Source: a virus (Duplodnaviria; Heunggongvirae; Uroviricota; Caudoviricetes). Taken from it: a DNA stretch of 47,449 bases. This document shows, in pieces, positions 4,080 through 42,517 of the stretch. A model generated the notes under the pieces. That model worked only from the letters and a program-made list of their open reading frames with translations, had not been told where the DNA came from and searched no databases. The position numbers were made by a program, and so were the translations under genes. The stretch is from IMG/VR virus record IMGVR_UViG_2585427767_000006; one strand, given 5' to 3'. Every line of letters begins with the position of its first letter. Positions within the stretch are counted from its first letter, which is position 1.

Positions 4080-4095
4080 ATCCACTCCACAAAAA

Positions 4096-4117
4096 AGCCC
4101 GCCTGAACCGGCGGGCT
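4096..4117 (-). terminator. Intrinsic terminator downstream of lom
   Basis: Perfect 8-bp stem AGCCCGCC/GGCGGGCT with 6-nt loop, followed on the minus strand by a run of 6 U. Confidence 0.6.
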
Positions 4118-4143
4118 GTCATAACACTGTGTTACCTGGCTAA

Positions 4144-4743
4144 TCAGAACTTATAACCGACACCCACGATGAAACCGTCAGTGCGCCAGTCGCCACTGCC
4201 GGAGCCTTCATAAGCAATATCAATGGCCACGGATTCGGTCGGGTTAAACTGCACGCCAGCTCCCCACGCCAGAGACGTGTTGCTGTGGCGATCGTCATCA
4301 CTTCCGGTCAGCACATCGTGCGTTTTCCCCTTGTTGTCAGTTACGCGGAGATAATCCCCGGAGAACGTCGAAACACGGCTGTAAGCCACACCTGCCATCG
4401 CATAAGCACTGAACCATTCATTCACGCGTACAGATGGCCCCGCCATCATGCTGAACCAGCGGTTACGCACTGAATCTTCATGCCAGCGGGTATCGCTGTA
4501 ATGCGTTCTTTGCTCATCTTTGGCATTGGCATAACTGAATGACGTCACCAGCCCCAGCGTGTCCGTAAATTCATAACGGTATTTCACGTTAATGCCCTTC
4601 AGGTCATCACTGCCTGGCATATCAGTATGGGTCTGAAGATACCCGGCGCTTAGTGTGGACTGATGCTCTGCTGCGCTCGCTGGCGTACCAGCGGCAACCA
4701 GCCAGACTACTGCGGACAGAATAACAGCACATAATTTACGCAT
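4144..4743 (-). CDS. lom: Outer membrane protein Lom (Ail/PagC/OmpX family)
   Basis: 199-aa protein with signal peptide and beta-barrel ending in C-terminal F; matches lambda Lom; SD GAGAGG upstream. Confidence 0.9.
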   Translation of the reverse strand: MRKLCAVILSAVVWLVAAGTPASAAEHQSTLSAGYLQTHTDMPGSDDLKGINVKYRYEFTDTLGLVTSFSYANAKDEQRTHYSDTRWHEDSVRNRWFSMMAGPSVRVNEWFSAYAMAGVAYSRVSTFSGDYLRVTDNKGKTHDVLTGSDDDRHSNTSLAWGAGVQFNPTESVAIDIAYEGSGSGDWRTDGFIVGVGYKF

Positions 4744-4767
4744 AATTACCTCTCGCTTTTCTGCAAT

Positions 4768-4791
4768 AAAAAAGGCACCATTTCTGGTGCC
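4768..4791 (-). terminator. Intrinsic terminator between J and lom
   Basis: Stem GGCACC/GGTGCC, loop ATTTCT, followed on the minus strand by UUUUUU. Confidence 0.5.
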
Positions 4792-4810
4792 CGTATCTGG
4801 GTTATAAAAT

Positions 4811-20017: not shown

Positions 20018-21599
20018 GTGGTGTTGTCTCCTCTTCCGGCCTGCGACTCTCCGCTATCTGCTGCTGATACGCCTGCGCTATCCACACCGGACGTGAGAGT
20101 CCGGCTTTTTGCCGCTCAGCAGATTCCCTGACCTGCTGGCGGAAAATGTCCTGATAATCCTCGCCCATCAGCGCCAGCTCTTTCTCATACGTGCTCAGTC
20201 CGGCCTCAATGCGCATCACTGATTCCTGGACTTCCTTGAGCCCGTCAATGGCCATTCTTCCGGCACCAATCCACTCTGCCCGTGACCAGGCTGATCGCGC
20301 CTGATAAAAATCAAAACGTGCCCGTGGCGGACGAATAATCCCCCGAAGAAGTGCCTCTTCCAGCCAGCAGGAAAACATCTGCGTGGCCAGCCGGGCCGCA
20401 ATAAATTTTCGCCGCCCCATAAAATAGCGCCACGACTCATTGGCGGAGGCGCGGGCACTTGAGTAACTGACCTTCGAGTAATCACGGGACAACTGTTCGT
20501 AGGAAACGCCAAGACCGGCGGCGATATACCGCAGCAGCGCCTGTTCAAGCGCAGAAAATCCATTGTCTGAATCCTGCGCAGTCTGTAGTTTCAGAGCATC
20601 ACCAGGGAAAAGGTGCGGAATTTTGACACCGCCCAGTGTCACGTTATTCGTGTCATACCAGCTGGAGAACTTCTCCAGAATATTAATAAGCGGATTATCC
20701 TTCTGCTCCTGTGGCGCGCCGGCGATATATTCAAAGGCCTTTTCGGTATCAAGTTCACTTTCAATCGTCGCTGCATACATCGCCTTCACTATGGCCGACT
20801 GAAGCTGTGTTGCCTGCAGGGAATCGAGCATCTTCAGCCGTTCCATGACGCTGTAAAACTGATTAGCCCCACGGGTCTGCCCGTCCTCCACCGGCTCGAA
20901 AATATGCAGCATGGCCGGACGCCCGGTGGGAAGTTCACGCGGGATCCGTTCCCATCGTCCACTACCAGAGAACGGAAAATCATCCTCACAGATATGGTAC
21001 GCGACGGCACGGCCATATCGATCGACCTCCACACCGGCCCGCAGAAAACGGTTCCCCATACCGTGTCCAGGCGTGTCCACCCGTTTCGGACTCACGGCTT
21101 TAAAACGCGTACGGAATAACTGCGTGGTTTCCGTATCCCAGACCGGCTGCACAAAGATTTCGCCGTTAAACGCATGAACGCCCACACCTTCACGGATAAA
21201 TTCCGTGAAGGTGCGTTTTCCTTCCACGTCGATCTCGCCAAACATCCCTTCGGCGTATTCCGACCAGGCCGCCTCCACCTCATCGACAAAGCTTTTTGCT
21301 GCGGTCTCCCGCATCCCCAGCCAGCGCCAGTTCGGACGGTAGCTGATCAGAAACATATGCCCGACAATGTGATCCTTATGCAGAGCCACCGCATTAGCCG
21401 CTATTCCGTTATTGCGCACCAGATCATCTGCCCGGGCATTCCCCAGACGCAACGCGGGCAGCAGGGCCGCATCGGCACTCTGCGCCGGTGGCAACCACTC
21501 AGCCATTTGCCCGCCAAATCCTGCACCGCCCCCGTTGTAGCTGAGACTATCACGAAGCGGAACGCCGTTCACATCAATCAGGACAGGCGTTCGTTTCAT
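20007..21599 (-). CDS. B: Portal protein B
   Basis: 530-aa ORF following W and overlapping C, in lambda order. Confidence 0.9.
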   Translation of the reverse strand: MKRTPVLIDVNGVPLRDSLSYNGGGAGFGGQMAEWLPPAQSADAALLPALRLGNARADDLVRNNGIAANAVALHKDHIVGHMFLISYRPNWRWLGMRETAAKSFVDEVEAAWSEYAEGMFGEIDVEGKRTFTEFIREGVGVHAFNGEIFVQPVWDTETTQLFRTRFKAVSPKRVDTPGHGMGNRFLRAGVEVDRYGRAVAYHICEDDFPFSGSGRWERIPRELPTGRPAMLHIFEPVEDGQTRGANQFYSVMERLKMLDSLQATQLQSAIVKAMYAATIESELDTEKAFEYIAGAPQEQKDNPLINILEKFSSWYDTNNVTLGGVKIPHLFPGDALKLQTAQDSDNGFSALEQALLRYIAAGLGVSYEQLSRDYSKVSYSSARASANESWRYFMGRRKFIAARLATQMFSCWLEEALLRGIIRPPRARFDFYQARSAWSRAEWIGAGRMAIDGLKEVQESVMRIEAGLSTYEKELALMGEDYQDIFRQQVRESAERQKAGLSRPVWIAQAYQQQIAESRRPEEETTPRET

Positions 21600-21802
21600 A
21601 ACCTCACTCCCAGCGGACGACGGCGACGCCGGGTTGTCCCCAGTACCGACTCCGCATCATTGATCGCCCGGTTAAGCTCATCCAGAGAAGCCGCCGTATA
21701 TTCAATTCTGCGACCATCTTTCTGGACAGACACCACCCGTTTACCGGTTAATAAATCAAGGCGCGCCTGACGCAGCGCCTGCAGTTCAGCGACTGTAACC
21801 AT
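21596..21802 (-). CDS. W: Head-tail joining protein W
   Basis: 68-aa protein with LTGKRVVSVQKDGRRIEYTAASL resembling lambda gpW. Confidence 0.85.
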   Translation of the reverse strand: MVTVAELQALRQARLDLLTGKRVVSVQKDGRRIEYTAASLDELNRAINDAESVLGTTRRRRRPLGVRL

Positions 21803-23714
21803 TCACTCCTCCGGACAGCTTCGCTGCCAGTTCTTTAAGGGTTGGCCGGGTCGTCTCTTCTTCCCGGGATTTTGCCAGTACAGCCAGATCAAGCTGCCAG
21901 CGTTGCACGGACACACGTAATGCCGCGTAGGCATACACCAGGCAGTCCAGCGCTTCGTTACGCCGCTTTTTGTTATCCCACAGCAGACGCATCTTTCCTT
22001 TTTCCCACTTCTCCACAAGCTCTTCCGCGACCAGTTGCTGCGCCTCTGTCTGCGAAAAAATCTCCGGATCATCAGGAAAACGGATGGCATACGACGTGGC
22101 TTCATCCACAGGCGTGGGATCGGCTTTCATACGGGCATAGAGAATTTCTTTTGCGGTGTCCGTCCCCACTTCACACAGATACACGCCCCGCTGATTGCGG
22201 GTTTTTGGCATGGTGATCACCGGCTTGCCATAGACAGATGCGCCTTTTACCGGCAGCACCCGGAAAACACCGTGTTTTTTTGACCTCTGATAAACGATTT
22301 CGCCATCGATCCCCCCGATGTCCCAGCAGACACGGGAAATAGTCATTTCGGTTCCGTCTGCATGGCGGTATTTTTTGTTGATCGCCGCATCCAAACGTAA
22401 CAGCGTCTCTTCCTCATCGGGACGCCCCATAATGATGATTTTATCCACCAGAAAGGCTTCCTCTCCCGGAGCCCATCCCCAGACATACATCTCGAAACGG
22501 TTTCGCTGCGAGTCAATGCCCGCCGTCAGATAAACCACCCGGGCAGGCACCGCCGCCGTGTAACGCACAACCTTATCCATCAGTACCTGGTGATCGAGTT
22601 TTTCGCCCACGGCCTCTTCCCAGGTCTCGCCCAGCGTGGTGTTCACAAAGGTTTTCAGGCCGTTGGGATCTTTCAGTGCATCCAGCCAGTCATAGACAAT
22701 CTGTACCCAGGTGGTGAACGGACTGTACGCCGTCCAGATATGGAAAGTGATGGAACGCGGCGGCGGAATTTCATCACACCGGGCGCTGAAAAACATCAGG
22801 CCGTCACGGGTCCACATGCCCGTGTTTTCACAGATCCACCGCCCGTTACTCTGGTCAAGCTCAGACTGATGGATCACACAGCCATGATGCTCACAAAGGT
22901 AGAAAACACTTTCTGGTTTATTCTTCTCCCACTTAAGACCGAAAGGCGAGGCATCATCGCCAAATTTCAGATACTGCTCCTCCCCACAGTGCGGACAGGG
23001 CACATAAAAACGCATGAAGTGTGCCGACTCGTTAGCGGCTTTTTCGATCTGGCAGGAGCCTTTGATTTTAGGCGTCGAGCCGCGAATGGATTTTGGCCAT
23101 ACAGAGCCCTCAATACGTTTATCCCCCAGCAGGGTTGGCGAACCCTCTTTTTCAACATCCGGTTCGAACGAGGAAAGCTCGTCATAACAGACCACATCCA
23201 CGGATTTTTCACGGTAGTTTTTTGCTGCCGCACCACCCAGACACCAGAACCCCACACCGGAGGAAAAACGCTTCAGGGTGAGCGTATTATCGCGGTGTTT
23301 TCTTCCGAACCATGGAGCCAGCTCCAGCAATGCAGGAACATCCCTTATCGTTGGCTCAACATGAGATTTCATAAAATCTTCAGCAGCTGAGTCCGTGGGC
23401 TGAAAAAGAAGGCTGTTGCGTGATTTATGCTCAATAAAATAAGCCTCCACTCCCAGCAACATCTTTGTATAACCAACACGGGCAGATTTAATCAGGTTAA
23501 CCGTGCGAATCAGATCGTTGCCCATACAGTTCATGATGCCAACCTGAAACGGCAGTGTTTCCCACCGCCCGGGGGTATAAGACGACTCTTTAGGAAGGTA
23601 ATAATGTTTATTGGCCCACTGAACTGTCGTCAGTGGAACAGGAATAATGAGAGATAAAAGCCCTGTAGCTATCGCACCGGCTGCATTAGCTGCCTTCTGC
23701 GCGTCTGAAATCAT
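21786..23714 (-). CDS. A: Terminase large subunit A
   Basis: [20 protein letters not shown], Walker-A-like region and [14 protein letters not shown] match lambda gpA; start at ATG 23714 gives a lambda-like ~29-nt overlap with Nu1 (ORF-track start 23756 also possible). Confidence 0.95.
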
Positions 23715-25631: not shown

Positions 25632-26096
25632 TTATCTGAGGCATTGCTCTCGAATGTATAGCTGTGCCCCTTCAAGTTGTTTTTGCATTATTATCAGTCG
25701 CGCTCTGAGGGTGAAATAATCCCGTTCAGCGGTGTCTGCCAGTCGGGGGGAGGCTGCATTATCCACGCCGGAGGCGGTGGTGGCTTCACGCACTGACTGA
25801 CAGACTGCTTTGATGTGCAACCGACGACGACCAGCGGCAACATCATCACGCAGAGCATCATTTTCAGCTTTCGCATCAGCTAACTCCTTCGTGTATTTTG
25901 CATCGAGCGCAGCAACATCACGCTGACGCATCTGCATGTCAGTAATTGCCGCGTTCGCCAGCTTCAGTTCTCTGACATTTTTGTCGCGCTGGGCTTTGTA
26001 GGTAATGGCGTTATCACGGTAATGATTCAGCCCCAGACTAAGCGCACCACAGGCCACCAGCAGGGCAATGATGACCACGCACAGTACGCGGTTCAT
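25632..26096 (-). CDS. Rz: i-spanin Rz
   Basis: N-terminal signal-anchor ([18 protein letters not shown]) and coiled-coil periplasmic domain; follows the endolysin. Confidence 0.85.
25694..25876 (-). CDS. Rz1: o-spanin Rz1 (embedded in Rz, +1 frame)
   Basis: Lipobox LVVVGC, proline-rich mature part ([15 protein letters not shown]); entirely inside Rz. Confidence 0.8.
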
Positions 26097-26272
26097 TTCA
26101 CCACCAGCGTATCTGACCGATGAAATAACCGGAGGCCATAATCACAAACACCAGCCAGATAAGAATGAACTTCCAGGTGGATAATTTTTCAGCCATCACT
26201 CGAATCTCCCGAATCAGTTTGCTAAAATCAAACACACTTTCTCCTTTGACTTTTCCGGAGTCAGGAAACACA

Positions 26273-26303
26273 AAACCCCGCTTGGTGCCAACAAACGGGG
26301 TTT
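26273..26303 (-). terminator. Intrinsic terminator-like hairpin downstream of the endolysin gene
   Basis: 8-bp stem AAACCCCG/CGGGGTTT with 15-nt loop; U-rich on both sides. Confidence 0.45.
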
Positions 26304-26394
26304 TTACTTTTATTCACTTACGTTTCGCCACTTCGCAGGATTTCATGTTATCCGCCCGCGTGGCCATGCCTTATTTTTCAGCAAAATATTCTGC

Positions 26395-26928
26395 TTATCT
26401 GTCGATACCCCAGCACGCCAGCGCGCTCTCCTGGTCACGACGGGATACCTGACCGTAGCAGTTGTTTGAACGAATACGGCAGTCTCTGCCACCGTCCTTA
26501 ATCCACCAGCGAATCGCCTCACACGCTCCCCTGCGATCACCTGCATTAATTCGTTTATAAAACGTCGACGGAAAACACTTACCGGGGCCAATGTTGTACG
26601 GACAGAATGACGCGATCCCCGCTTTCTGGGGTTCACTCAATGGCACTCTGATGTTTTTCTCCACCCATGCCAGCGCCTTATCACGCTCAATGGCGTTAAC
26701 CCGGTCGCATTTTTCCTTCGACAACTTCATGCCCGGAACGACAGGTTTGCCATCCACCAGGATGGCACCGCGGCAGATGGTCCAGATACCCGCGCCATCA
26801 CGGTATGCCGTGGTGTGGTTACCTTCCTTTTCATCCAGAAACTGGTCGAGAATGTCAGGCGCAGGCGCACCAGCGGCAATCAGCGCCAGAACGGCAGCCG
26901 ACAGGCCGTATCTGATTTTTGCGTTCAT
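26395..26928 (-). CDS. R: SAR endolysin (T4-lysozyme-like muramidase, R21 type)
   Basis: N-terminal signal-anchor-release segment (LSAAVLALIAAGAPAP) followed by E-x8-D-x5-T catalytic triad (EGNHTTAYRDGAGIWT). Confidence 0.9.
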   Translation of the reverse strand: MNAKIRYGLSAAVLALIAAGAPAPDILDQFLDEKEGNHTTAYRDGAGIWTICRGAILVDGKPVVPGMKLSKEKCDRVNAIERDKALAWVEKNIRVPLSEPQKAGIASFCPYNIGPGKCFPSTFYKRINAGDRRGACEAIRWWIKDGGRDCRIRSNNCYGQVSRRDQESALACWGIDR

Positions 26929-26991
26929 GGATATTTATCAGGATTTATCGGTTTCTGCCCACGGACAGGTTTATCTGTTCCGGTCAGTGAC

Positions 26992-27342
26992 TTAAGGTTG
27001 TGATTCCGGAGGAGTCTTCAGAGAACCAGTAATTCTTCCCGGTAGCTTTCCTTTGTAGGTTATCCATACATTCTGCGCCTCTAAAATTACGGGGCGCTTT
27101 TCCGGCGACTGCTCATCCCCTTCACATAACCCGGCAGCAACATCCAGGAAGACCTGTCTGATGCTCCTTCTGGCTGCTGCCTCATAAAACTCCAGCGCGG
27201 CACCTTCAACACGGTCCAGCGAGATGTCCAGGTCAAAAATTTCACCGTCAAAGCGTTTTTTGTCCCGTAACGCTAAAGTTACCGTAACTTTATTCTCAAA
27301 ATTGCGGATCCCTTTCACAATCAGTTTATAGTTTTGAGTCAT
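26992..27342 (-). CDS. Hypothetical protein between holin and endolysin (YdfR/DUF1327-like)
   Basis: 116-aa ORF starting 5 nt after the holin stop; resemblance to Qin YdfR is from memory only. Confidence 0.45.
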   Translation of the reverse strand: MTQNYKLIVKGIRNFENKVTVTLALRDKKRFDGEIFDLDISLDRVEGAALEFYEAAARRSIRQVFLDVAAGLCEGDEQSPEKRPVILEAQNVWITYKGKLPGRITGSLKTPPESQP

Positions 27343-27346
27343 TGAA

Positions 27347-27553
27347 TTACTCTCCCCGTGCAGCCTTACGACGGTCCTCTCTGATTTTGAAATACAGGTT
27401 AGTCAGATATGTCAGCAGCCCAAACAGCAGACTCCCCAGCACGCCTATTGCCGCCCACTGAGACGGGGAAACCCTGTCCAGCAACTGCAGGAACCAGTAG
27501 CCCGTTCCCACCGCTGACGTGGTGTATGACACACCTGTTGTGATTTTTTCCAT
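27347..27553 (-). CDS. S: Pinholin, S21 type (class II holin)
   Basis: 68-aa product [68 protein letters not shown] closely matches phage 21 S21; upstream in-frame ATG at 27562 would give the antiholin form. Confidence 0.85.
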
Positions 27554-27712
27554 CTGGTACATACCCCGTCTCCCGTTATCCGGAAGCTGACAACAATAAA
27601 AAAAGCCACCAGTTAAGTACTGATGGCTCTGATAACTCATGCAGGCATCTCAGACGACCCACTGACACTACCGGTGAGTTTAACGATACCTTCCATTTGA
27701 CTGGCTCACTTT

Positions 27713-29566
27713 TTATGATGATGCCGGTGCATTTATCTCCAGCACCAGACTTTCTATCTCAACGCCATACGCTGCATTTTTGGTAATATCCGTCAGCGTC
27801 AGCGCATTCAGCCCCAGTGTCAGACTGTCTTTTATGACCTGGAATGCCGGGCCAGCCACTCCATTCAGTTTCGGAGTAACCGTGGCACTGCCGGCGGTGA
27901 ACACCAGCTCCAGCGTCTGCCAGTCGTTACTGTAATTCCCGAACTCGCCCAACTTTGTGTTTCCGGCTTTCTTGTGATGCATCAGATTCAGTTTGCCGTC
28001 TGTGGTCTGGGTGAAGAACGACATCAGGAACGGGTTACCAGTCCCGGTCATCGCCACGACGTCAGGTAACGCTACATCGGTATACAGATAAATTCCCAGA
28101 CCGAACTGGTTGTTGGTCAGTGCGCCTGACAGTCGAAACTTACAGCTCAGTCTGCCACCCCGTGTCAGCAGGGAGACTGCGTCATCCACCGGGCGCGTCA
28201 GGGACCAGGCTTTATTGCTCTGCTTGGTGATCTTAAATACACCATCTGACAACTGAATTCCGCCATTCTTAATGCTCCAGCCCTGCGCAGCAGCATCTCC
28301 GGCTGTCGGCAACAGGGAGATTGTGCGTACGGATGCATCTTCAGACGGCCCCGATGGCGTGTCGCCGCCGGGCGAGGGTTTGATTTCCGGTGCCTTACCA
28401 CTAATGAAGGCTAAGGTGCGACCGGCTACGTTCAGAATAGCAGTTGCCATACGATCGGGAATAATGCCACGACGCGCCCATGAGCTGAAATGCGTCGGGC
28501 GATTTGATGATACCCAGTTTTTGTTCGTTCGGGATGCCGAACCGTAATAACCAGACCCGGCAATATCAGGATCTTCTGACGGGTTGTTTGTCGGTGTATT
28601 AACTCCGCTACCATCGGTCATAAAGGGAACAAAATAAATCTGCTGGGATTCTTTACCTTTATATGCACCATATACCACTTCATATTGCGTACCGTGTTCT
28701 TGTTTCCACGCGTATGTCGTGTCGCCACAAATCCAGGGGACTGATGCCGGACTTCCACCGTGACACTGCGCTGCCAGCCCGGCAAGGTCAGCACGGAACT
28801 GCTGTACCATTGCAAGAAATGCTGCTGGCTGCTGGGCGTAACTGGCATTCGTCATATCGAATTCCCCCTGCATCCAGCATATCGCCAGCAAAACGTTTTT
28901 CGGGTTTTTCTGCAATGCTGCCTTCGTGCGGAAAAGCAGATCCTGATATAACGGCTTACCCACTCCCCAGCGAGCCGAATCCTGACTGGCTCCCGTGGAC
29001 TCGCTGAATGTCCCCTCCGTGCCCTGGGTGAATGCCGAACCACCACGACAGCATGGTACCAGCAGGATCCCCGCATTATTAGGGATATACGGAAGCAGTT
29101 TTTTGGCAATATGTAAGCCCTGTCCGACACAGCCGTACTGCCCTTTGCTCAGGTCAGCCCGGGGATGGTTAATCGTACTCATATCCTGAACATCATGCAG
29201 ACAATGGTCAGCAGGAATGATGTCGTTAAATACGCATACTTCACCACCGGGAGTCACTGTGTTACGACGGGCCAGTTGCTTAATGCGCGGATGGGGCGCA
29301 TCGTATGAATCCGGAAGCGGAAGCCCTTCACCGTAAGCCATGGCATTGGATTGCCCGGCCAGTACGATGACGTAGTACCACTCCGGCTCAGTTGCACCAC
29401 TGACGACCACATCACCTTCTGCTGCAATCGCCTGCATCAGGGTATAAGGGGTTATGGCCACCGGACTACCAAACGGCTGCCAGCCCTCTTTCAGTTTATG
29501 TGTCAGCTTTTCCGCAAGATCTGACGGCGACGCCGCCCTGACAACATCATAGTGTTTAAATGCCAT
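27713..29566 (-). CDS. nanS: Prophage 9-O-acetyl-sialate esterase NanS-p (DUF1737 N-domain plus SASA esterase domain)
   Basis: N-terminus MAFKHYDVVRAASPSDLAEKL and the position directly upstream of the holin match the nanS-p gene of Stx-type phages; start at ATG 29566 (SD GGTGGAAAG) rather than ORF-track 29581. Confidence 0.8.
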   Translation of the reverse strand: MAFKHYDVVRAASPSDLAEKLTHKLKEGWQPFGSPVAITPYTLMQAIAAEGDVVVSGATEPEWYYVIVLAGQSNAMAYGEGLPLPDSYDAPHPRIKQLARRNTVTPGGEVCVFNDIIPADHCLHDVQDMSTINHPRADLSKGQYGCVGQGLHIAKKLLPYIPNNAGILLVPCCRGGSAFTQGTEGTFSESTGASQDSARWGVGKPLYQDLLFRTKAALQKNPKNVLLAICWMQGEFDMTNASYAQQPAAFLAMVQQFRADLAGLAAQCHGGSPASVPWICGDTTYAWKQEHGTQYEVVYGAYKGKESQQIYFVPFMTDGSGVNTPTNNPSEDPDIAGSGYYGSASRTNKNWVSSNRPTHFSSWARRGIIPDRMATAILNVAGRTLAFISGKAPEIKPSPGGDTPSGPSEDASVRTISLLPTAGDAAAQGWSIKNGGIQLSDGVFKITKQSNKAWSLTRPVDDAVSLLTRGGRLSCKFRLSGALTNNQFGLGIYLYTDVALPDVVAMTGTGNPFLMSFFTQTTDGKLNLMHHKKAGNTKLGEFGNYSNDWQTLELVFTAGSATVTPKLNGVAGPAFQVIKDSLTLGLNALTLTDITKNAAYGVEIESLVLEINAPASS

Positions 29567-29826
29567 GGTTCTTTCCACCATCTGAAAAATGATTCTTTAA
29601 AATACCTGACATGTAATACAGAAAAAACACAAAACCATACCTTAAATAAAAACCTCATCATCAAGCAGATATGCATGGATAAACTACAAGACGAGATATA
29701 AACCACCCTGCATTTAAATAAACAATAAACAACATCAGAAAAATAATTCTGCTCTATGGTTTACAATCAAAAATATCATTTATACTTTTCAGAACATCAC
29801 CAGCAAGGCATAAACAAGGAAACTAA

Positions 29827-30162
29827 ATGAAGTGGATTGTGATTGATACAGTTATCCAGCCATCATGCGGAATATCTTTTTCAGTCATATGGAGTAAAAT
29901 AAAATTAATAATCTGGTATCAATCGGATGCTTTCTTACCTCCTGAAAGTATATTTACACTGACTCACACAGGCATCATGCTCAATAACAAAGTGCTACCT
30001 GTAACCATTTACAACGTAGTACCATTCAATAAAACATTCTGGAATTTAATCAAAAACAGCCAGGAATGCCCTACAAATACAGATAACGTATTGAATGAAT
30101 GCTTTAATAACCGTTGCACTCTGCAAATATGTCCTTATGGACTAAAACAACAAAGTCCATAA
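29827..30162 (+). CDS. Hypothetical Cys-rich protein (111 aa) in the stx-slot cargo
   Basis: SD AAGGA 6 nt upstream of ATG; candidate sigma70 promoter TTTACA-N15/17-TATACT upstream; 6 AUA codons; two strong hairpins immediately downstream. Confidence 0.4.
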
Positions 30163-30218
30163 GGAGTTTACTCACATCTGACAAAATCAATATAAACAGC
30201 CCCTCCGGAGAGGGGCTG
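30132..30218. terminator. Tandem hairpins (likely bidirectional terminators) after the plus-strand cargo ORF
   Basis: 12-bp perfect stem TCCTTATGGACT/AGTCCATAAGGA (30132..30165, spanning the stop codon) and 9-bp stem CAGCCCCTC/GAGGGGCTG with 4-nt loop (30197..30218). Confidence 0.5.
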
Positions 30219-30609
30219 GAGAGTGGCGCTATGTGCCATTGCATGGTGCCGGGTGCCTCCCGGTGAATTCAGTACCAGCACCTGAATCCGCGATTATCCC
30301 ATATACCTACTCGCTGATTGCCCCTCCGCACAGGGGGATTCACCATGCCAGTTTCTTTTAACAAACTCCCCGCAAACCAGACAACAATCAACCGCCTGAA
30401 TTGTGAAGTATTTAAAAATTTCTCCCGCTAACTGATACCCGGCTAACAGTCTGGCGTTTTCTTTTTCAGCAACGGGAAAGCAACAACCACCACACCCGCC
30501 ACCAGCACACCGTCAGCCAGCACTGACATTATCCGGCTGCTGCAATGCCATTCACAAAAACAGTAAGCAATCACTTTTTACCGTAACCGGTGATAATCCA
30601 GATATGTAT

Positions 30610-30966
30610 CTACCCCAGATGAGTAATCCGAAGTTCATCCATACCACAGGTCCTGGCTATTCTGTTGTACTCCTGAACAAGAGCAAATAATTCTGAATTA
30701 GCCACCATGAACTCATCGCAAACCCTCTGTATAGCATCACTATTCAGAATAATAACGTCTCTTCCCGAAAGACGATCAGGAGTACAGAACAAAACTGTCA
30801 AACGGCTGAAGGCCTTTGCTCGTGCTGCATTGACTATATCAATACGCTGCCTAAGGATGAAACACCCCGACGCCTCATCAATATTCACTCTACCCACACC
30901 ATATGAATGATAAATATTTAATGCTGAAAAAACCATTAGACCGTATAACAAACACTCAATCAACAC
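30610..30966 (-). CDS. Hypothetical ORF at the position stxA occupies in Stx phages; coding status doubtful
   Basis: 118-aa ORF with GTG start and no convincing SD at either the GTG or the internal ATG (30936); AT-rich. Confidence 0.25.
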   Translation of the reverse strand: MLIECLLYGLMVFSALNIYHSYGVGRVNIDEASGCFILRQRIDIVNAARAKAFSRLTVLFCTPDRLSGRDVIILNSDAIQRVCDEFMVANSELFALVQEYNRIARTCGMDELRITHLG

Positions 30967-31073
30967 TTAACAGAACTTTTATTTTTGACAAACATATAAT
31001 ATTTTCAACAATATCCTGAGCCAGGTATATTTCAGTATAAGGCTCTGCCGGAAGGAATCTGGAAGAATGAATA

Positions 31074-31150
31074 TGGCGCGCTGTACTGGATTCGAACCAG
31101 TGACCGATTGCTTAGAAGGCAATTGCTCTGTCCGGCTGAGCTAACAACGC
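31074..31150 (-). tRNA. tRNA-Arg (anticodon UCU)
   Basis: Minus-strand 77-nt sequence GCGTTGTTAGCTCAGCCGGACAGAGCAATTGCCTTCTAAGCAATCGGTCACTGGTTCGAATCCAGTACAGCGCGCCA folds as a cloverleaf with anticodon loop CUUCUAA and T-loop TTCGAAT. Confidence 0.9.
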
Positions 31151-31250
31151 TGAATACCGATAATGGACCGCCATCGGGGACCCGCCCCCGCACCAACAAC
31201 CCTGTTATCGTGTCGTCTGCTCTTCCTGATAAGCTAATGGCGGTTTGTGA

Positions 31251-31326
31251 TGGTGGCCCTTGCTGGATTTGAACCAGCGACCTGGCGATTATGAGTCGCT
31301 CGCTCTCACCACTGAGCTAAAGGGCC
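31251..31326 (-). tRNA. tRNA-Ile2 (anticodon CAU, ileX/ileZ-like; could alternatively be Met)
   Basis: Minus-strand 76-nt sequence GGCCCTTTAGCTCAGTGGTGAGAGCGAGCGACTCATAATCGCCAGGTCGCTGGTTCAAATCCAGCAAGGGCCACCA; 7-bp acceptor stem, anticodon CAU, very close to E. coli ileX. Confidence 0.85.
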
Positions 31327-31469
31327 GGGAGCAGAATAATAACGGTCCGTAATTAATTCCACAATAAAAAACCCACTCGGCGGCGGGTTGTTGAAACTCT
31401 TCTAACGTCAGGCATAAAAAGCCCATCGTTATGACGAATTTACCACAGATTCCGGAAAAATCAACCTTG
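31327..31469 (-). promoter_or_regulatory. Putative late promoter / Q-utilisation region with terminator-like hairpin downstream of Q
   Basis: Minus strand has TTGATT-N16-TAAATT promoter-like hexamers just after the Q stop and a short GC hairpin followed by UUUUU near 31366..31389; assignment by analogy to lambda, not verified. Confidence 0.3.
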
Positions 31470-32291
31470 TTACCTAGTTACCTTTTTTAACTGCCGCTCA
31501 GCCCATGCTTCTTCAATATCAAACCGGGTCACCAGCGCATCATAGAATTTCTTAACTGTTTTTTCCCATGACGCGCGTGTTATCTGGTTTGTCACCTCGC
31601 ATATAGCATTAAATGCCTCCGTTGATGGTAGTCTTTCATAGCCACGACCACCACAACGCTGGCAGTCTCTGATAACAGGCATACCACGTTTTACCGACTC
31701 TTCACGGTAAAGGGCGACACCACGCCCACGGCAATCCTTACAGGCGGTGGAAACCTCACCCTTTCCGCCACACTCCGGACAGGCAACTTTTACCACCTCC
31801 CTGACTTTTTTCCATTCTTCCCAGTAAGACGGATACACGCCTTTTGTGCACTTTGCCCACACTGGTGGCTTACCATCCGGATACTGGATCTTGTTTGTAA
31901 AAACCTCGCTTTCAATAAATTTTTTTCCGTGACAGCAGGGGCACTGTTTTTTGCTCGCCGCGCTACGGGCATAATCTTCAAACGCATACGAAGCCATAAT
32001 GCGCATCACTACCGGTTTTATTTCTGCCGGAAGTTTTCTCAACGCCGCCACACGATCGCACCGACTGAGTGCATAATCTGCCAGTAATTCTGTTGCCCGC
32101 GCCCTGTCATTCATACTGATGCCCATTTTCCCCAGGAACGCAGAAAACCCCATCTCAGCCCGATTCTGTGTCATGCCCTGCGCGGCCATCACATCAGTGA
32201 TACTCAGCGCATCTTTTGACGTTGAGGCCGATGCATCGGTCAGGCCAGGGGATTTTGGGGAGTAGTATTTCGGTAAATCTTCCAGTTTCAT
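31470..32291 (-). CDS. Q: Late-gene antiterminator Q (zinc-binding Q family)
   Basis: 273-aa protein with multiple CxxC pairs (CPCCHGKK, CPECGGKG, CKDCRGRG, CQRCGGRG); immediately upstream of tRNAs and lysis genes; ATG overlaps the rusA stop. Confidence 0.8.
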   Translation of the reverse strand: MKLEDLPKYYSPKSPGLTDASASTSKDALSITDVMAAQGMTQNRAEMGFSAFLGKMGISMNDRARATELLADYALSRCDRVAALRKLPAEIKPVVMRIMASYAFEDYARSAASKKQCPCCHGKKFIESEVFTNKIQYPDGKPPVWAKCTKGVYPSYWEEWKKVREVVKVACPECGGKGEVSTACKDCRGRGVALYREESVKRGMPVIRDCQRCGGRGYERLPSTEAFNAICEVTNQITRASWEKTVKKFYDALVTRFDIEEAWAERQLKKVTR

Positions 32292-32662
32292 TTTTTGACC
32301 TGCCCTTCAAGCATTATGGGGTAAATCTTCACCCCCAGACGTCCACCAGATACTGGCTGACCACGAACGATATTGATTTCATCAAACTGCTCATCGTCCA
32401 TTAACACTCCCGCATGCGTCAGCGCATCCAGCGGTGCTTTCAGGATATTGTCCAGGTCGCGACGACGCTTATCCGGTGGCTCTGCAATCACCTTTATCGC
32501 CAGCCTTCCGGACAGGCTTAATTTCAGCCGCTGCTGGCGAACAATAAGCGCCACAGCCCGGCGATAACGCTTTCCCTCCTCCGAGATAAAATATGTGCTG
32601 CCACGGCGTCGCCAGTAAGTGTTCACCGTCGGCGGGTAAGGTAAAACCAAATCTATGAGCAT
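32288..32662 (-). CDS. rusA: Holliday junction resolvase RusA
   Basis: 124-aa protein with PPDKRRRDLDNILKAPLDALTHAGVLMDDEQ, the RusA catalytic-Asp signature. Confidence 0.9.
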   Translation of the reverse strand: MLIDLVLPYPPTVNTYWRRRGSTYFISEEGKRYRRAVALIVRQQRLKLSLSGRLAIKVIAEPPDKRRRDLDNILKAPLDALTHAGVLMDDEQFDEINIVRGQPVSGGRLGVKIYPIMLEGQVKK

Positions 32663-32674
32663 CAGTCACCTCTT

Positions 32675-33721
32675 TTACCCAAGCACGCCAGTTGCAAAGG
32701 CGTGATCAAGAAAACGAAAAATTAAATCAACCTGAGAACCATGCTTTTCTTCGAACGCCAGAGGATCCGCATGAAGCTCGTTGTGATGCTCCCGACACAG
32801 CGGTAGCGTGAAAATATCGTGAGATTTTGTCCCCATTCCGCCCTGACCATGACCAATCAGGTGATGGGGATCGTCGGCTGGCTTACCACAACACGCACAC
32901 GGCTGTGTCTTCACCCAGCGTGTGTATTTCTCGTTAACCCAGCGGCGACGTTTAGGTCGTTTCATGAAAGATTCCGGAGACTCAGGATCAACGGCAATGC
33001 TGACCACCGTCTCTTCCTGTGGCGGGGTTTGCTGGTGGGCGGGAGGCAGCGGCGCAAGATTTTTTGTGCGCTGCTTCAGTATGCTGGTGGCGGTCTGCTC
33101 TCCCGGTACGATGTCGCTTTCACGGTACATTGAGCGGATTTTTTCCGCACGCAACCCCAGCGAACGACGTAATACCGCTTCCGGTAGCGCGTCCGCCACC
33201 TGATTGCGGACCGCCCACCAGGATAATTCAGCCAGCGATAATTCCCGTTCCTGCGAGCCATTCATTGCATGGAGTATGACGTCAATCATCCATGCAGACA
33301 GGTTTTGGTGAGCAAGTTGCCCGAGTGATTCGGAGGTCTGGTCGCGCAGCTGGTTGTCGCAGTGCCAGCACAACACCATTGCGCCGGTACCATAACGGTG
33401 AATGACGGTTTCACTGTGGTGATAATCGCCGTGTGGCCACTGGCAGGATTTAACATGGCGCAGTAACCAGTCAGACAATGCGCCAGCGCCACCAGCAGCA
33501 CGAATCACTCGTTCGTCGCTGAAAAATAGCAGTAATGATTTATCCTCCGCCAGCGGCTGGCGAACGGCAGGAACGACCCCGGACGACAGATTACGCATGC
33601 TTTTCGGTTCCGGCTCCACCAGTACCCGGGTATTGTGGAATACCGGCATGGATTCACGGCCCGGCTTAACGATCACCAGCCCGAGTTCCGGTACCAGAAC
33701 AGGTCGAAGTAATACCCGCAC
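32675..33721 (-). CDS. DUF968-family protein with C-terminal HNH-like motif (YdfU-like)
   Basis: 348-aa protein; C-terminus CACCGKPADDPHHLIGHGQGGMGTKSHDIFTLPLCREHHNELH is a Cys/His HNH-like motif. Confidence 0.7.
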   Translation of the reverse strand: MRVLLRPVLVPELGLVIVKPGRESMPVFHNTRVLVEPEPKSMRNLSSGVVPAVRQPLAEDKSLLLFFSDERVIRAAGGAGALSDWLLRHVKSCQWPHGDYHHSETVIHRYGTGAMVLCWHCDNQLRDQTSESLGQLAHQNLSAWMIDVILHAMNGSQERELSLAELSWWAVRNQVADALPEAVLRRSLGLRAEKIRSMYRESDIVPGEQTATSILKQRTKNLAPLPPAHQQTPPQEETVVSIAVDPESPESFMKRPKRRRWVNEKYTRWVKTQPCACCGKPADDPHHLIGHGQGGMGTKSHDIFTLPLCREHHNELHADPLAFEEKHGSQVDLIFRFLDHAFATGVLG

Positions 33722-34116: not shown

Positions 34117-35214
34117 TTATGGTATTAATCCAGCTGTTCTTGCTTTATTAATATAATTTTTACAGTGGTTAGCCAAATACTCTGCAAACTTGCATGGAAG
34201 TGCATTTCCTATTATGACGCATACTTTATCCATCAAAGCTGTATCAAACACATAGTTATCAGGAAAAGTCTGTAGTCTAGCAGCTTCTCGAACAGAAATA
34301 GTACGCGTATCCTCAGGATGTCCATATCGCCCACGGCTTAAAGTTGTGCACCCACCTGTAATCGTTGGCGATACGTCATCCCAAAGCATACGACCATAAA
34401 CATTACTAAATCCTTTATAGTCGCCTTTATGGCAATCTGGACGGAGTTCTTCGGGAATACACTCCCAAGACATCCCTGGAACAGCCGCTTGTAACCGCTT
34501 TATATTGATCTCAGACAAATCCCTAACAATATGCCAACTCGACAATGGAAACTTCCCTTGCTTCTTAGCCTGTGAAAGAGTTAAGGGTTTTGGCATATCT
34601 CCAATAGCTTCTTTAACAGTTACCCATTTGGGTTTCTCTCTTCCATCCTTAGAGTGTGATCCATCAGGCAATGGGATGGCAAATCCTTTTCCTGCCAACA
34701 GAACAAGCCTTTTTCTGAACTGTGGTACACCAAAGTCAGCTACTTGCAAAACTCCATAATTAACTATGTAACCAAGTTTTTTCAATCTCTCAATTACTGG
34801 CGAAAGAAGATGATTTCCCCGGGAAGCTAATCCAGGAACATTTTCCATCATGATTGCTGATGGATTGGTTTCTTCAACCAACCGTAACATCTCGTTAATC
34901 AATAAATTACGAGGGTCCTCCCTTTTATACTTGGCAGTGAGACTAGTAAATCCTTGACATGGCGGGCACGCAGATAAAAGATCTAAATGTTGCTCAGGGA
35001 TAAGATTTAGGATATCACTCCCCTTTACAAACCGAATATCTTGAACAAAGAGTTTTGTCTCACGATGATTTGCTTGGAAAGTAGCGGCGGCATGTGCGTC
35101 CAGTTCAACGGCAGCTTTGACATCAAACCCGGCCATTTTTAGTCCCATGGTTAGTCCCCCACCACCGCTAAATAGGTCAACTGCATTCAAACTGGTCACT
35201 GTTTTCTCACTCAT
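34117..35214 (-). CDS. DNA cytosine-5 methyltransferase (Dcm-type)
   Basis: Motif I DLFSGGGG, catalytic motif IV PCQGF, motif VI ENV, motif VIII QFRKR; ATG overlaps the upstream gene's stop by 8 nt. Confidence 0.9.
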   Translation of the reverse strand: MSEKTVTSLNAVDLFSGGGGLTMGLKMAGFDVKAAVELDAHAAATFQANHRETKLFVQDIRFVKGSDILNLIPEQHLDLLSACPPCQGFTSLTAKYKREDPRNLLINEMLRLVEETNPSAIMMENVPGLASRGNHLLSPVIERLKKLGYIVNYGVLQVADFGVPQFRKRLVLLAGKGFAIPLPDGSHSKDGREKPKWVTVKEAIGDMPKPLTLSQAKKQGKFPLSSWHIVRDLSEINIKRLQAAVPGMSWECIPEELRPDCHKGDYKGFSNVYGRMLWDDVSPTITGGCTTLSRGRYGHPEDTRTISVREAARLQTFPDNYVFDTALMDKVCVIIGNALPCKFAEYLANHCKNYINKARTAGLIP

Positions 35215-37318
35215 TATTTCCCAACTTCAACTGTTCTGCCTCATCCAAGAATTCTTGGTGAGTTTGAGTTGTCCTCAGCAAGAACCCTGCCCAATCAACG
35301 GGTGTTAGGCGTTTTTCTTCGATGTATGCAGTATAAGCTTTACGACGTGCCCCACTCAAGCGCTCCCCATCACTTACCAGCGTAACGTGAAAATCAGATG
35401 CTATTGATTTAAAATCATTATGTCTCTCATCGTTCAAAAACTCCTCGAATGTTTCGAAGTAATTAATAATACGATCCATTTCATCATTGGAAATATAATG
35501 ATGTGGCTTTTTTATTTCAATTATTTGTAATTTTCCATCCTGACTAAACAATACAAAGTCTGGTCTTTTATTTTTTTTATCAAAATCTATAAGAAATATC
35601 TCCTCACCAGTTTTCTTTTTATAAAATTTTTGAAATTCCCTTTTAAGCGTGGACAACGTTTTATTTGCTGTAACTGGGACCCATTGAGGGTTAACTAGCC
35701 ACGGAGCGGATGCAATTAGATCTTGTAACTCATCTTCTGCTGTATCCTTTGCGTCTTTTAAAGACTCGAGACGCTCAATAATCTGAAGACGCTTTTTGAC
35801 CTTTTGACCAAAACTAACGGTTTCAGCTAGTTGAGCCGTTGCTAAAATATCGTTGAGAACATTGAGCGGTGTATCCGCTTTACTGGAAGCTTCTATTAAC
35901 TTCTCATCTAAGGATTGTAATGGTGCTAACATAATACTTAACTGCACTAAATTCTCGAGTGCATCAGGATCATGTAATTCATCACCTCGTAAAGATTTAC
36001 CCAACAACTTGGCTATTTTTTTAGCCTGTGCTCGCATATCCTTTTGACCGGCTCCAGGGTATGCTTGCTCGACCTTATCCTCCACTTGCGCTAATTCGAA
36101 GAATTGATTCATCATATTATTTCTAAGGGGGTCGCGAGTTATTTTACCCACAAGTAAAATAACTTCTTGCCCCCAATTCTGAAATTGCGTTCCTAAATCA
36201 TCAGACCATAGAATATCCCTTCTATCAGTTTGGATAAGATCTTCTTTTTCGTCTAACCAGTCAGCATGCAACTCACCTACCAAATATGAACGTATAGAGT
36301 GCTCTCCAGTAAAACCAGCTTTTCTATTAAAAACTGCTGTTTGCGCAGCAAACTTACCTCGGCAATAAATTCTAACACCTGCCATTAACTCGTCCTTATA
36401 AGGCTCTTTCGCGTATGCAATCCAACCTAATATCGGGTAAGCTTTCCCTTCATGTTCAAAACCGGCCTTAACAATTGATGAACGCGTGCCGTCAGGATTA
36501 AAAGCCGTATAATCACTTAAATCCGTACAAGAATCTGTCGCAATACTTCCACTCATGGAACGAAATTCAATTTTAGAGTTAGGCATAACAGGAACAGTAA
36601 ACTCTCCGACCTCAACTTCATAGTCAGGATTAGACTTTGTTTTCGAAGTATCAATCAGTTTAATATTCCAGTTTTTACTCTTCACTCCAAAACGTTGTGA
36701 AAGCTGCCGAGATAAATCTTTTATTTCGCTAATTTTTCTATATTCAAAATCACTTAATATTATTTTAGTATAGGTCCTGTCACTTAGTGTGCCGTCTAAA
36801 TCCCCAGTTTCCGGTTTATAAGACACTGCAGTATCATCCATTATTTTTTCTTTATCTAGCTGAATATGAGCAACCTCATACCCTTCCTTTCCATCACGAC
36901 TGATTTTTTCCCCACCGGCACTTATAATCTCGACCCTTTTACAAACACCAAAAGGTGCTAATTTCCCAACGCCTTTCCGTCCCATGACTTTGCGGTGAAA
37001 CACCTTCGAGGTTTCACCTCTTTTTGGATCCTTACGTCTTTCTTTGCCAACAACCAAATAAAAGTTCTGTAGTTCATCAGGCGCCATTCCGACGCCATTA
37101 TCTTCTACTTCTATTGTGACATTTTTTGACCTGACAACACCATCCTGTCTAACAGCCAAGTATTGGCCCATAGGTGCTTTTATAGTGACATTAGTCGCAT
37201 CTGCATCGTAACTGTTAGATACTAATTCGGCTATAACAGCATAAGCCCTGTCATATAATTTCACACCTAATTTATCTACTGTCATCCTTGATATCTGCAT
37301 TTCATATTGACGCGCCAT
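35207..37318 (-). CDS. GHKL (MORC/MutL-like) ATPase fused to a C-terminal PD-(D/E)xK-type nuclease domain; putative restriction/defence nuclease
   Basis: N-box ELVSNSYDADA, G1 DNGVGM, G2 GRKGVGKLAPFG in the first 130 aa; C-terminal IDFD...PDFVLF...IIEIKK nuclease-like signature; SD AAGGA upstream. Confidence 0.7.
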   Translation of the reverse strand: MARQYEMQISRMTVDKLGVKLYDRAYAVIAELVSNSYDADATNVTIKAPMGQYLAVRQDGVVRSKNVTIEVEDNGVGMAPDELQNFYLVVGKERRKDPKRGETSKVFHRKVMGRKGVGKLAPFGVCKRVEIISAGGEKISRDGKEGYEVAHIQLDKEKIMDDTAVSYKPETGDLDGTLSDRTYTKIILSDFEYRKISEIKDLSRQLSQRFGVKSKNWNIKLIDTSKTKSNPDYEVEVGEFTVPVMPNSKIEFRSMSGSIATDSCTDLSDYTAFNPDGTRSSIVKAGFEHEGKAYPILGWIAYAKEPYKDELMAGVRIYCRGKFAAQTAVFNRKAGFTGEHSIRSYLVGELHADWLDEKEDLIQTDRRDILWSDDLGTQFQNWGQEVILLVGKITRDPLRNNMMNQFFELAQVEDKVEQAYPGAGQKDMRAQAKKIAKLLGKSLRGDELHDPDALENLVQLSIMLAPLQSLDEKLIEASSKADTPLNVLNDILATAQLAETVSFGQKVKKRLQIIERLESLKDAKDTAEDELQDLIASAPWLVNPQWVPVTANKTLSTLKREFQKFYKKKTGEEIFLIDFDKKNKRPDFVLFSQDGKLQIIEIKKPHHYISNDEMDRIINYFETFEEFLNDERHNDFKSIASDFHVTLVSDGERLSGARRKAYTAYIEEKRLTPVDWAGFLLRTTQTHQEFLDEAEQLKLGNNE

Positions 37319-41984: not shown

Positions 41985-42037
41985 TTTCTGGTGACTTTTG
42001 GCGGTATCAGTTTTACTCCGTGACTGCTCTGCCGCCC
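41985..42037 (+). ncRNA. dicF: DicF small RNA homologue (53 nt), with intrinsic terminator U-tract to ~42042
   Basis: Sequence TTTCTGGTGACTTTTGGCGGTATCAGTTTTACTCCGTGACTGCTCTGCCGCCC followed by TTTTT matches the E. coli Qin DicF sRNA as I recall it (one mismatch). Confidence 0.75.
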
Positions 42038-42325
42038 TTTTTAAAGTGAATTTTGTGATGCGGTGAATGCGGCTGAGCGCACGCGGAACAGTTAAAACCA
42101 AAAACAGTGTTATGGGTGGATTCTCTGTATCCGGCGTTAATTGTTAACTGGTTAACGTCACCTGGAGGCACCAGGCACCGCATCAACAAAGTTCACTTCG
42201 GTGATGAAAGGTAAGAGAAAATGTTGAATGTAGCTATTGAAAACCAGAACGGGTGGAATTATAGTGCACCTGCACCTCATAAAACGGGTGCCGGGCGTGG
42301 AAACCCGAAATCATTCACGGCGCAT

Positions 42326-42348
42326 AACCGCGCTCAGGCGGTTTTTTT
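42326..42348 (+). terminator. Intrinsic terminator between DicF and the Rha gene
   Basis: Stem AACCGC/GCGGTT, loop GCTCAG, followed by TTTTTTT. Confidence 0.6.
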
Positions 42349-42517
42349 ATGCGTTAAGCACAGCCACATTCGCATTATGGTGGGGCGTGCAGGGCAGCCG
42401 CAAGGCTGGCCGGGTTCCGTGATGACCGGTATTTCCACCCCTGTACGTCTCACCACCCTTATGGTCGTGGAAAACCTCGGTGGTGAGTTAATCAAATTCA
42501 TCGCGGAGGCTGCCATC

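Follow-up and report, generated by a model that had tools for sequence, protein, structure and literature searches.

Probable mosaic of known accessory cassettes, with iraL and an STnc100-family RNA, between the antiterminator Q and the lysis genes of an stx-negative lambdoid prophage

What is located at the position of stxAB in a prophage whose late genes are arranged as in a Shiga toxin (Stx)-converting phage, but which has no toxin genes? This question was raised by positions 29567-31073 of the Caudoviricetes record IMGVR_UViG_2585427767_000006, whose whole analysed stretch of 47,449 nt is called the window below. An earlier note, made from the sequence of the window only, had described these positions as a single AT-rich cargo of about 1.5 kb in the stxAB slot. 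The present analysis indicates, with a probability of roughly 85%, that the segment is a mosaic of known small accessory cassettes ("morons") in the interval from Q to the lysis genes of an intact lambdoid prophage integrated at ompW. The minus strand of the window carries all late genes. The segment contains the following features (aa, amino acids):

29760-29786, plus strand: iraL promoter TTTACA-N15-TATACT (TTTACA 29760-29765, TATACT 29781-29786), hexamers the same as in strain CFT073
29827-30162, plus strand: iraL, encoding an IraM-family RssB anti-adaptor of 111 aa (NCBIfam NF007393), antisense to the late operon
30188-30377, minus strand: small RNA (sRNA) of the STnc100 family (RF02076; cmscan 132.4 bits at a gathering score of 47, E 3.3e-30, model positions 1-206)
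30197-30218, minus strand: intrinsic terminator of STnc100 found by a terminator scan, a 9-bp GC-rich stem and then TTTATATT
30443-30574, minus strand: gene of a DUF3927/TciB-like hydrophobic peptide of 43 aa (PF13064, 95.6 bits at a gathering score of 25; phrog_1470, E 7.8e-13; WP_000562553.1)
30610-30888, minus strand: late-strand gene of 92 aa (phrog_2873, E 5.6e-58); the mechanical open reading frame (ORF) up to the GTG at 30966 has 118 aa

The late-strand order is the 92-aa gene, the DUF3927 gene and STnc100 with its terminator; iraL is located on the opposite strand, tail-to-tail with STnc100.

The locus turned out to be already known. Window positions 26000-33000 are 100% identical, over the 7 kb compared, to the lambdoid prophage adjacent to ompW in E. 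coli elppa4, which spans the region from the integrase to the tail fibres and is apparently complete. The segment 29567-31073 shares 98.9% identity with the potB prophage of the uropathogen CFT073, a reference strain, and at least 80% of window positions 29400-31400 is present in 863 of the 5426 complete E. coli genomes, 042 and JJ1886 among them, that is, in about one genome in six. The segment is therefore ordinary rather than new: it is conserved and annotated in stx-negative prophages (CFT073, 042, JJ1886), a situation that the earlier note itself had named as one that would refute its reading. The main value of the analysis is a correction, namely that a seemingly empty toxin slot is a well-studied iraL locus together with a catalogued sRNA.

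The window contains the backbone of a Stx-converting phage, namely Q, ileZ/arg tRNA genes, a slot, nanS-p and genes for holin, endolysin and Rz/Rz1. The order from Q through the tRNAs and the segment to nanS-p, holin, endolysin and Rz/Rz1 was confirmed using ORFs, tRNA calls and Pfam, and all features that had been listed from the sequence were found where the earlier note had placed them. The description as a late region of the Stx-phage type without stx was also correct. The genes stxA and stxB were not found between the tRNAs and nanS-p, and a tblastn search of the whole window with Stx2A and Stx2B gave chance matches alone (E at least 0.5; Stx1 was not searched).

The comparison with toxin-carrying phages showed which part of the segment corresponds to the toxin genes. 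The Stx2c/Stx2a phages 2851, 1717 and Stx2a_WGPS8 have the order Q, ileZ, argN, argO, slot, STnc100, reverse-strand IraM-like gene, nanS-p and lysis genes, and window positions 29409-30406 align with them at ~70% nucleotide identity. In the alignment to Stx2a_WGPS8 (RefSeq NC_049944), homology in the tRNA region covers window positions 31066-31366 and ends just past argO (~31066). It is found again from window position 30406, corresponding to the point 46 bp beyond stx2B, and extends as far as nanS-p with an identity of ~70%. The stx stretch of this phage (4299-5667 of the compared stretch) has no homology in window positions 26000-33000. Between stx2B and nanS-p, Stx2a_WGPS8 carries STnc100 (5697-5908 of the compared stretch) and, on the opposite strand, an intact IraM-like ORF of 107 aa (5919-6242, minus strand, of the compared stretch) whose product is 75% identical to IraL. 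An IraM-like ORF was found by tblastn in 41 records of Stx2 phages, in which STnc100 and the IraM-like gene are located downstream of stx2B. Since Stx2 phages have the homologue of 29409-30406 downstream of stx2B, the toxin is not replaced by STnc100 and the anti-adaptor gene but occurs together with them; the two would represent a shared backbone downstream of the stxAB position. According to the alignment, only ~30407-31062 is positionally equivalent to stxAB, so that the slot contains the 92-aa gene and the DUF3927 gene (~660 bp) in the window and stx2AB (1369 bp) in those Stx2 phages. The Q proteins are also of different types (144 aa in those Stx2 phages and 273 aa here), and the lysis genes differ too. 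Other phages have other cargo upstream of STnc100, for example tciA-tciB or a TolA-like gene.

The intact IraM-like gene after stx2B is unannotated in many Stx2c/Stx2a records, including NC_049944, and is labelled iraM in a few. In Stx2a_WGPS8, this ORF between stx2B and nanS-p has a promoter with the consensus TATAAT.

The hairpin-dense stretch that had been noticed in the segment is real and was assigned to STnc100, since the Rfam match (E 3e-30) is far beyond chance. The score of the full-length model is above the gathering threshold and a Rho-independent terminator is present at the 3' end; the minimum free energy is -74.6 kcal/mol, and the copy is 100% identical to that of CFT073. The two convergent mini-ORFs that the earlier note had placed in this stretch, 30233-30361 (plus) and 30269-30391 (minus), overlap STnc100 and were rejected as spurious, being inside or antisense to its structure. 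A partial "hypothetical protein" pseudogene at 30233-30358 (plus), which is present in the Prokaryotic Genome Annotation Pipeline (PGAP) annotation of both elppa4 and CFT073, was not accepted as a gene either, being antisense to STnc100; it is probably an annotation artefact.

In the strain EDL933, 11 copies of STnc100 are listed, all with RNA-seq reads and one confirmed by northern blotting (PMC5331693), and in Stx2 phages one copy follows stx2 at a distance of 75 nt (PMC12370729). A 2026 preprint ties STnc100 to the PasD sRNAs from prophages of enteropathogenic E. coli. Like STnc100 in the window, they are located on the late strand between Q and the esterase/lysis genes. PasD sRNAs are Hfq-dependent and have targets determined by RIL-seq. 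No validated STnc100 target was found in the literature examined on STnc100 and PasD, and a visual search revealed no convincing promoter of STnc100.

Homology with other phages breaks at window positions 30232/30240, 30406-30415 and 30542, which are at or within STnc100 and the DUF3927 gene. The breakpoints at STnc100 suggest that this element doubles as a junction, where homologous recombination between late-region cassettes probably takes place. Several copies of STnc100 can occur in one late region. Strain 2011C-3911 has four tandem copies directly upstream of nanS-p (4637-5616 of the compared stretch) and a further one at 2665-2877 of that stretch, and the phage 640R1 has two (3501-3694 and 3970-4158 of the compared stretch). 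All copies in 2011C-3911 and 640R1 are on the late strand, each after a cargo gene.

These data raise the question of whether STnc100 serves chiefly in cis, as a 3' end, terminator and linker for the recombination of late cassettes, and not as a trans-acting sRNA. This explanation is possible, but we are inclined to doubt it. It is consistent with STnc100 always being found at the 3' end of cargo (stx2B, a tolA-like gene, tciB/DUF3927 or the 92-aa gene) and on the late strand, with the four tandem copies of 2011C-3911 and the two copies of 640R1, with the mosaic breakpoints at its edges or inside it and with the lack of a validated target in the literature mentioned above. However, discrete transcripts, including the one confirmed by northern blotting, were found in uninduced enterohaemorrhagic E. 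coli (PMC5331693), and the related PasD sRNAs act with Hfq and have RIL-seq targets. In addition, roles in cis and in trans do not exclude each other.

The assignment of the plus-strand gene supports the mosaic of known cassettes as well. The 111-aa ORF is, by its sequence, IraL, a characterised RssB anti-adaptor. Its product matched the NCBIfam model NF007393, "anti-adapter protein IraM", with 162 bits at a cut-off of 121 and with residues 1-110 covered. A phmmer comparison with IraM from the PDB entry 8twd, whose solved core is composed of a beta-barrel, a hairpin and a helix, gave an E-value of 9.1e-32 and a gap-free alignment of residues 1-78 to residues 4-81; conservation is lower in the C-terminal tail, which is rich in Cys. 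Both the coding sequence and the protein are 100% identical to those of the CFT073 gene (c1429; WP_000871291.1; PMC4045071, PMC12890032), and the same PGAP accession, WP_000871291.1, is given to the window gene and to the gene of the CFT073 potB prophage. In PMC4045071, IraL was defined by at least 95% identity to CFT073 iraL across the coding region and by a conserved iraL promoter region. In the window, the nucleotide identity of the coding sequence is 100%, and the region from -100 to +33 is 97.7% identical with both hexamers intact. Judging from the construct "-100 to +33 relative to TSS" (transcription start site) of the same paper, transcription would start at ~29794. The Shine-Dalgarno sequence AAGGA is intact; together with the TTTACA/TATACT promoter and five Cys residues, it bears out the earlier description of a Cys-rich ORF with its own expression signals.

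In CFT073, the iraL promoter is active in uninduced log-phase cells according to 5' RACE, and IraL interacts with RssB and stabilises RpoS (PMC4045071). Binding of RssB and protection of sigma-S from ClpXP by IraL of the window are predicted from the identity to the CFT073 protein. Later work showed that iraL rises upon deletion of fur as well as at 37 C. IraM (YcgW) of K-12, whose structure with RssB is available (PDB 8TWD; PMC10844676), belongs to the same family NF007393, and the identity of IraL and IraM is about 59% (PMC4045071). Starvation for Mg2+ induces IraM, which contacts both domains of RssB, whereas IraL acts in log phase and showed two-hybrid binding to RssB's N-terminal domain only (PMC4045071).

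The iraL gene is divergent from nanS-p and convergent with STnc100, and it is antisense to the late operon. Since it is antisense to the late transcript and has its own log-phase promoter in CFT073, iraL is not driven by Q. No description of this head-on orientation of iraL relative to the late transcript was found in the literature searched. In addition, PMC4045071 gives the potB genomic island as the sole location of iraL, whereas here the gene belongs to the late region of a lambdoid prophage that is apparently complete. According to the same paper, JJ1886 holds two copies of iraL, and some second copies have promoter mutations of unspecified effect.

It seems improbable that the iraL copy is silent passenger DNA, repressed by H-NS or impaired in its promoter, which takes no part in the control of host RpoS. 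The GC content of iraL and its upstream region (29-35%) is typical of targets of xenogeneic silencing, there are three upstream substitutions relative to CFT073, and promoter mutations are found in some second copies (PMC4045071). On the other hand, the coding sequence does not differ in a single nucleotide from the functional CFT073 gene, both promoter hexamers (-35 and -10) are preserved, as is the Shine-Dalgarno sequence, and the gene is retained across hundreds of genomes.

Taken as a whole, the segment is indeed AT-rich in comparison with its surroundings (GC content of 39.7% at 29567-31073 and 50.4% in the whole window), but its composition is uneven, with 32.4% at 29582-30162, 52.0% at 30163-30406 and 41.4% at 30407-31073. 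This bears on the possibility that one foreign AT-rich cargo of ~1.5 kb replaced stxAB, with the Q-dependent late promoter driving the expression of the whole cargo on induction. The gene order as in Stx phages and the mean GC content agree with such a replacement, and the 92-aa gene, the DUF3927 gene and STnc100 would be read by Q-modified polymerase. Nevertheless, we regard it as very improbable, since the homologue of 29409-30406 is found downstream of stx2B in Stx2 phages, the segment is composite in both composition and evolution (breakpoints at ~30240, ~30406 and 30542), and iraL is located on the opposite strand with its own mapped promoter (PMC4045071). The claim of a single 1.5-kb cargo in the stxAB slot was thus not upheld by the alignment to the Stx2a phage.

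Within the mosaic of known cassettes, the slot itself is occupied by the 92-aa gene and, downstream of it, the DUF3927 gene. The earlier note had listed a 118-aa minus-strand ORF (30610-30966) with weak translation signals. The weak signals were confirmed, namely a first codon GTG (30966) without a Shine-Dalgarno sequence, but the conserved core is 92 aa. Homologues sharing 33-65% identity have lengths of 91-95 aa, and their starts coincide with the internal GTG 30888. PGAP annotates one of them, WP_001017777.1 (92 aa), in a different lambdoid prophage, where it is located between the Q region and the holin genes. In the comparison with its gene, the nucleotide identity is 72%, the ratio of nonsynonymous to synonymous substitution rates (dN/dS) is 0.25 and the differences by codon position are 19/19/40. 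The protein was attributed to phrog_2873 on the basis of the profile match, conserved length and purifying selection. The ORF is thus a real gene with a shorter conserved core, and the N-terminal 26 codons look spurious. That it is a chance ORF can hardly be maintained: PGAP annotates no gene for it either here or in CFT073, searches of Pfam and NCBIfam gave no match and its first GTG lacks a Shine-Dalgarno sequence, but the spurious look is limited to the 26 N-terminal codons, and the homologues of conserved length down to 33% identity, the dN/dS value with an excess of third-position changes, the phrog_2873 match, the PGAP annotation of WP_001017777.1 and a confident AlphaFold2 model all argue for a gene. 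A conserved phage gene has therefore been overlooked by PGAP here.

Modeling of the 92-aa protein with AlphaFold2 led to a mean predicted local distance difference test value (pLDDT) of 89.7 and to a fold consisting of a helix, a beta-hairpin and a helix. Fold searches in PDB and BFVD with this model gave merely generic helical-hairpin/prefoldin-like matches, none of which was significant (best E 0.03). Neither the 92-aa nor the 118-aa version matched anything in Pfam, NCBIfam or PADLOC, and none of the three small proteins of the segment matched PADLOC defence models at E <= 0.01. In the phage JLK-2012, which has tciA-tciB, the 3' part of the DUF3927 gene together with STnc100 is 92.6% identical to the window; the upstream partner is tciA (TerB-like) in that phage and the 92-aa phrog_2873 gene in the window. 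The name TciB-like is an annotation-based family name. No promoter is claimed for the cassette of the 92-aa gene, DUF3927 gene and STnc100; the site 31008..30981 is only a 9/12 match, and promoter-like sites occur in this region about as often as in shuffled sequence.

Upstream of the segment, the following features are relevant to its expression:

31470-32291, minus strand: late antiterminator Q, 273 aa (Pfam PF03589 Antiterm, E 2.7e-52; "antitermination protein" in PGAP)
31437-31464, minus strand: candidate late promoter pR', TTGATT-N16-TAAATT with a TGn extension, found by eye directly after the Q stop codon
31370-31389, minus strand: tR'-like intrinsic terminator between Q and the tRNAs, AACCCGCCGCCGAGTGGGTT then TTTTATT, found by a terminator scan
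31251-31326, minus strand: tRNA with a CAU anticodon, ileZ-type tRNA-Ile2 (Met according to ARAGORN, tRNA-Ile according to PGAP)
31151-31250, minus strand: degenerate remnant of the middle tRNA-Arg (argN), recognised by alignment to the intact argN of CFT073 and Stx2 phages
31074-31150, minus strand: tRNA-Arg(UCU) of the argO type (ARAGORN and Rfam)

The site at 31437-31464 is below the threshold of the consensus promoter scan and can be considered only a candidate pR'. In the lysogen, short late transcripts from pR' would end at tR', and iraL would be transcribed from its own sigma-70 promoter. IraL would bind RssB, block the delivery of sigma-S (RpoS) to ClpXP and so raise RpoS in growing cells, as shown for the identical CFT073 protein, and the raised RpoS would be a lysogenic-conversion trait. 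On induction, Q-modified RNA polymerase is expected to pass tR', the tRNAs, the 92-aa gene, the DUF3927 gene and the STnc100 terminator. The same polymerase would then cross iraL in the antisense direction and continue into nanS-p and the lysis genes. The earlier statement that the cargo is induced with the prophage would accordingly be valid for the late-strand elements, but it fails for iraL, which is antisense and has its own promoter mapped in CFT073.

Several points weigh against this explanation. The expression of iraL in the strain studied is predicted from the identity to CFT073, and one of the three upstream substitutions, all of which are outside the hexamers, adjoins the putative transcription start. 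With a GC content of 32%, the iraL region may be a target of H-NS silencing in some backgrounds. Both the read-through and the antisense interference at iraL are predictions, and pR' was found solely by eye. The number of promoter-like sites in 29300-31600 is 6, compared with a mean of 5.3 in shuffled sequence. The fold searches with the 92-aa protein gave no significant match from which a function could be assigned to it. It can be suggested, quite tentatively and as an unlikely extension, that the cassette at the stxAB position (phrog_2873, DUF3927 and STnc100) is a Q-induced module directed at the host, and that an antisense switch-off of iraL couples induction of the prophage to RpoS turnover.

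As for the tRNA genes, the counterpart of the CAU tRNA carries the name ileZ in the annotation of the Stx2a phage. In the 100-nt spacer between the two tRNA genes of the window, the region of the anticodon arm is scrambled relative to intact argN, i.e., the spacer is a decayed tRNA; none of ARAGORN, Rfam and PGAP called it at 31151-31250. Weak Rfam matches to Trp_leader (31363-31469) and Plastid-ycf2 (on a tRNA) were dismissed as terminator and tRNA look-alikes.

Downstream of the segment, the late genes are as follows:

27713-29581 (PGAP start 29566), minus strand: nanS-p-type sialate O-acetylesterase (Pfam DUF1737, SASA and DUF6645)
27347-27640 (PGAP coordinates 27347-27562), minus strand: class II (P21 S-type) holin (Pfam PF04971)
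26992-27342, minus strand: DUF1327/YdfR gene (Pfam), between the holin and lysozyme genes
26395-26928, minus strand: endolysin (phage lysozyme) with a hydrophobic Ala/Gly-rich N-terminus (Pfam PF00959)
25632-26096, minus strand: Rz spanin (ORF; "lysis protein" in PGAP)
25694-25876, minus strand: Rz1 lipoprotein, embedded in Rz (ORF)

The nanS-p gene is labelled "SASA family carbohydrate esterase" by PGAP. The lysis order in the earlier note was correct except that it left out the DUF1327/YdfR gene at 26992-27342. Judged by eye alone, the endolysin is of the signal-anchor-release (SAR) type. The endolysin and Rz genes are separated by a spacer of ~300 bp (26097-26394, minus strand), whereas these genes overlap in CFT073. 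The spacer contains an ORF of 57 aa (26098-26271) with a hydrophobic C-terminus and without a Pfam match.

The CFT073 potB prophage has the same neighbours (tRNAs, DUF3927, STnc100, iraL and nanS-p/holin) at 97.6-98.9% nucleotide identity. The differences concern the insertion site (ompW for the window prophage and potB for the CFT073 copy), nanS-p (full-length in the window prophage and truncated in CFT073), the middle tRNA-Arg (decayed in the window prophage and intact in CFT073) and an insertion sequence IS200 between Q and the tRNAs of CFT073, which is absent from the window prophage. This IS200C insertion, with an STnc490 element, was found at 21568-22159 of the compared stretch and would, in CFT073, part the Q-pR' region from the tRNAs and the late genes downstream.

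Two further regions of the window were noted. In the nin region upstream of Q, a low-GC gene pair (34117-37318, minus strand) encodes a 703-aa GHKL-ATPase protein, which matches PADLOC "type II restriction enzyme" models, and a C5 cytosine DNA methyltransferase; the pair looks like a prophage-borne restriction-modification or defence module. In the early/immunity region, by dicB and ydfABC, a cluster of DicF, isrK and C4 antisense RNA was found at 41986-42460 (plus strand).

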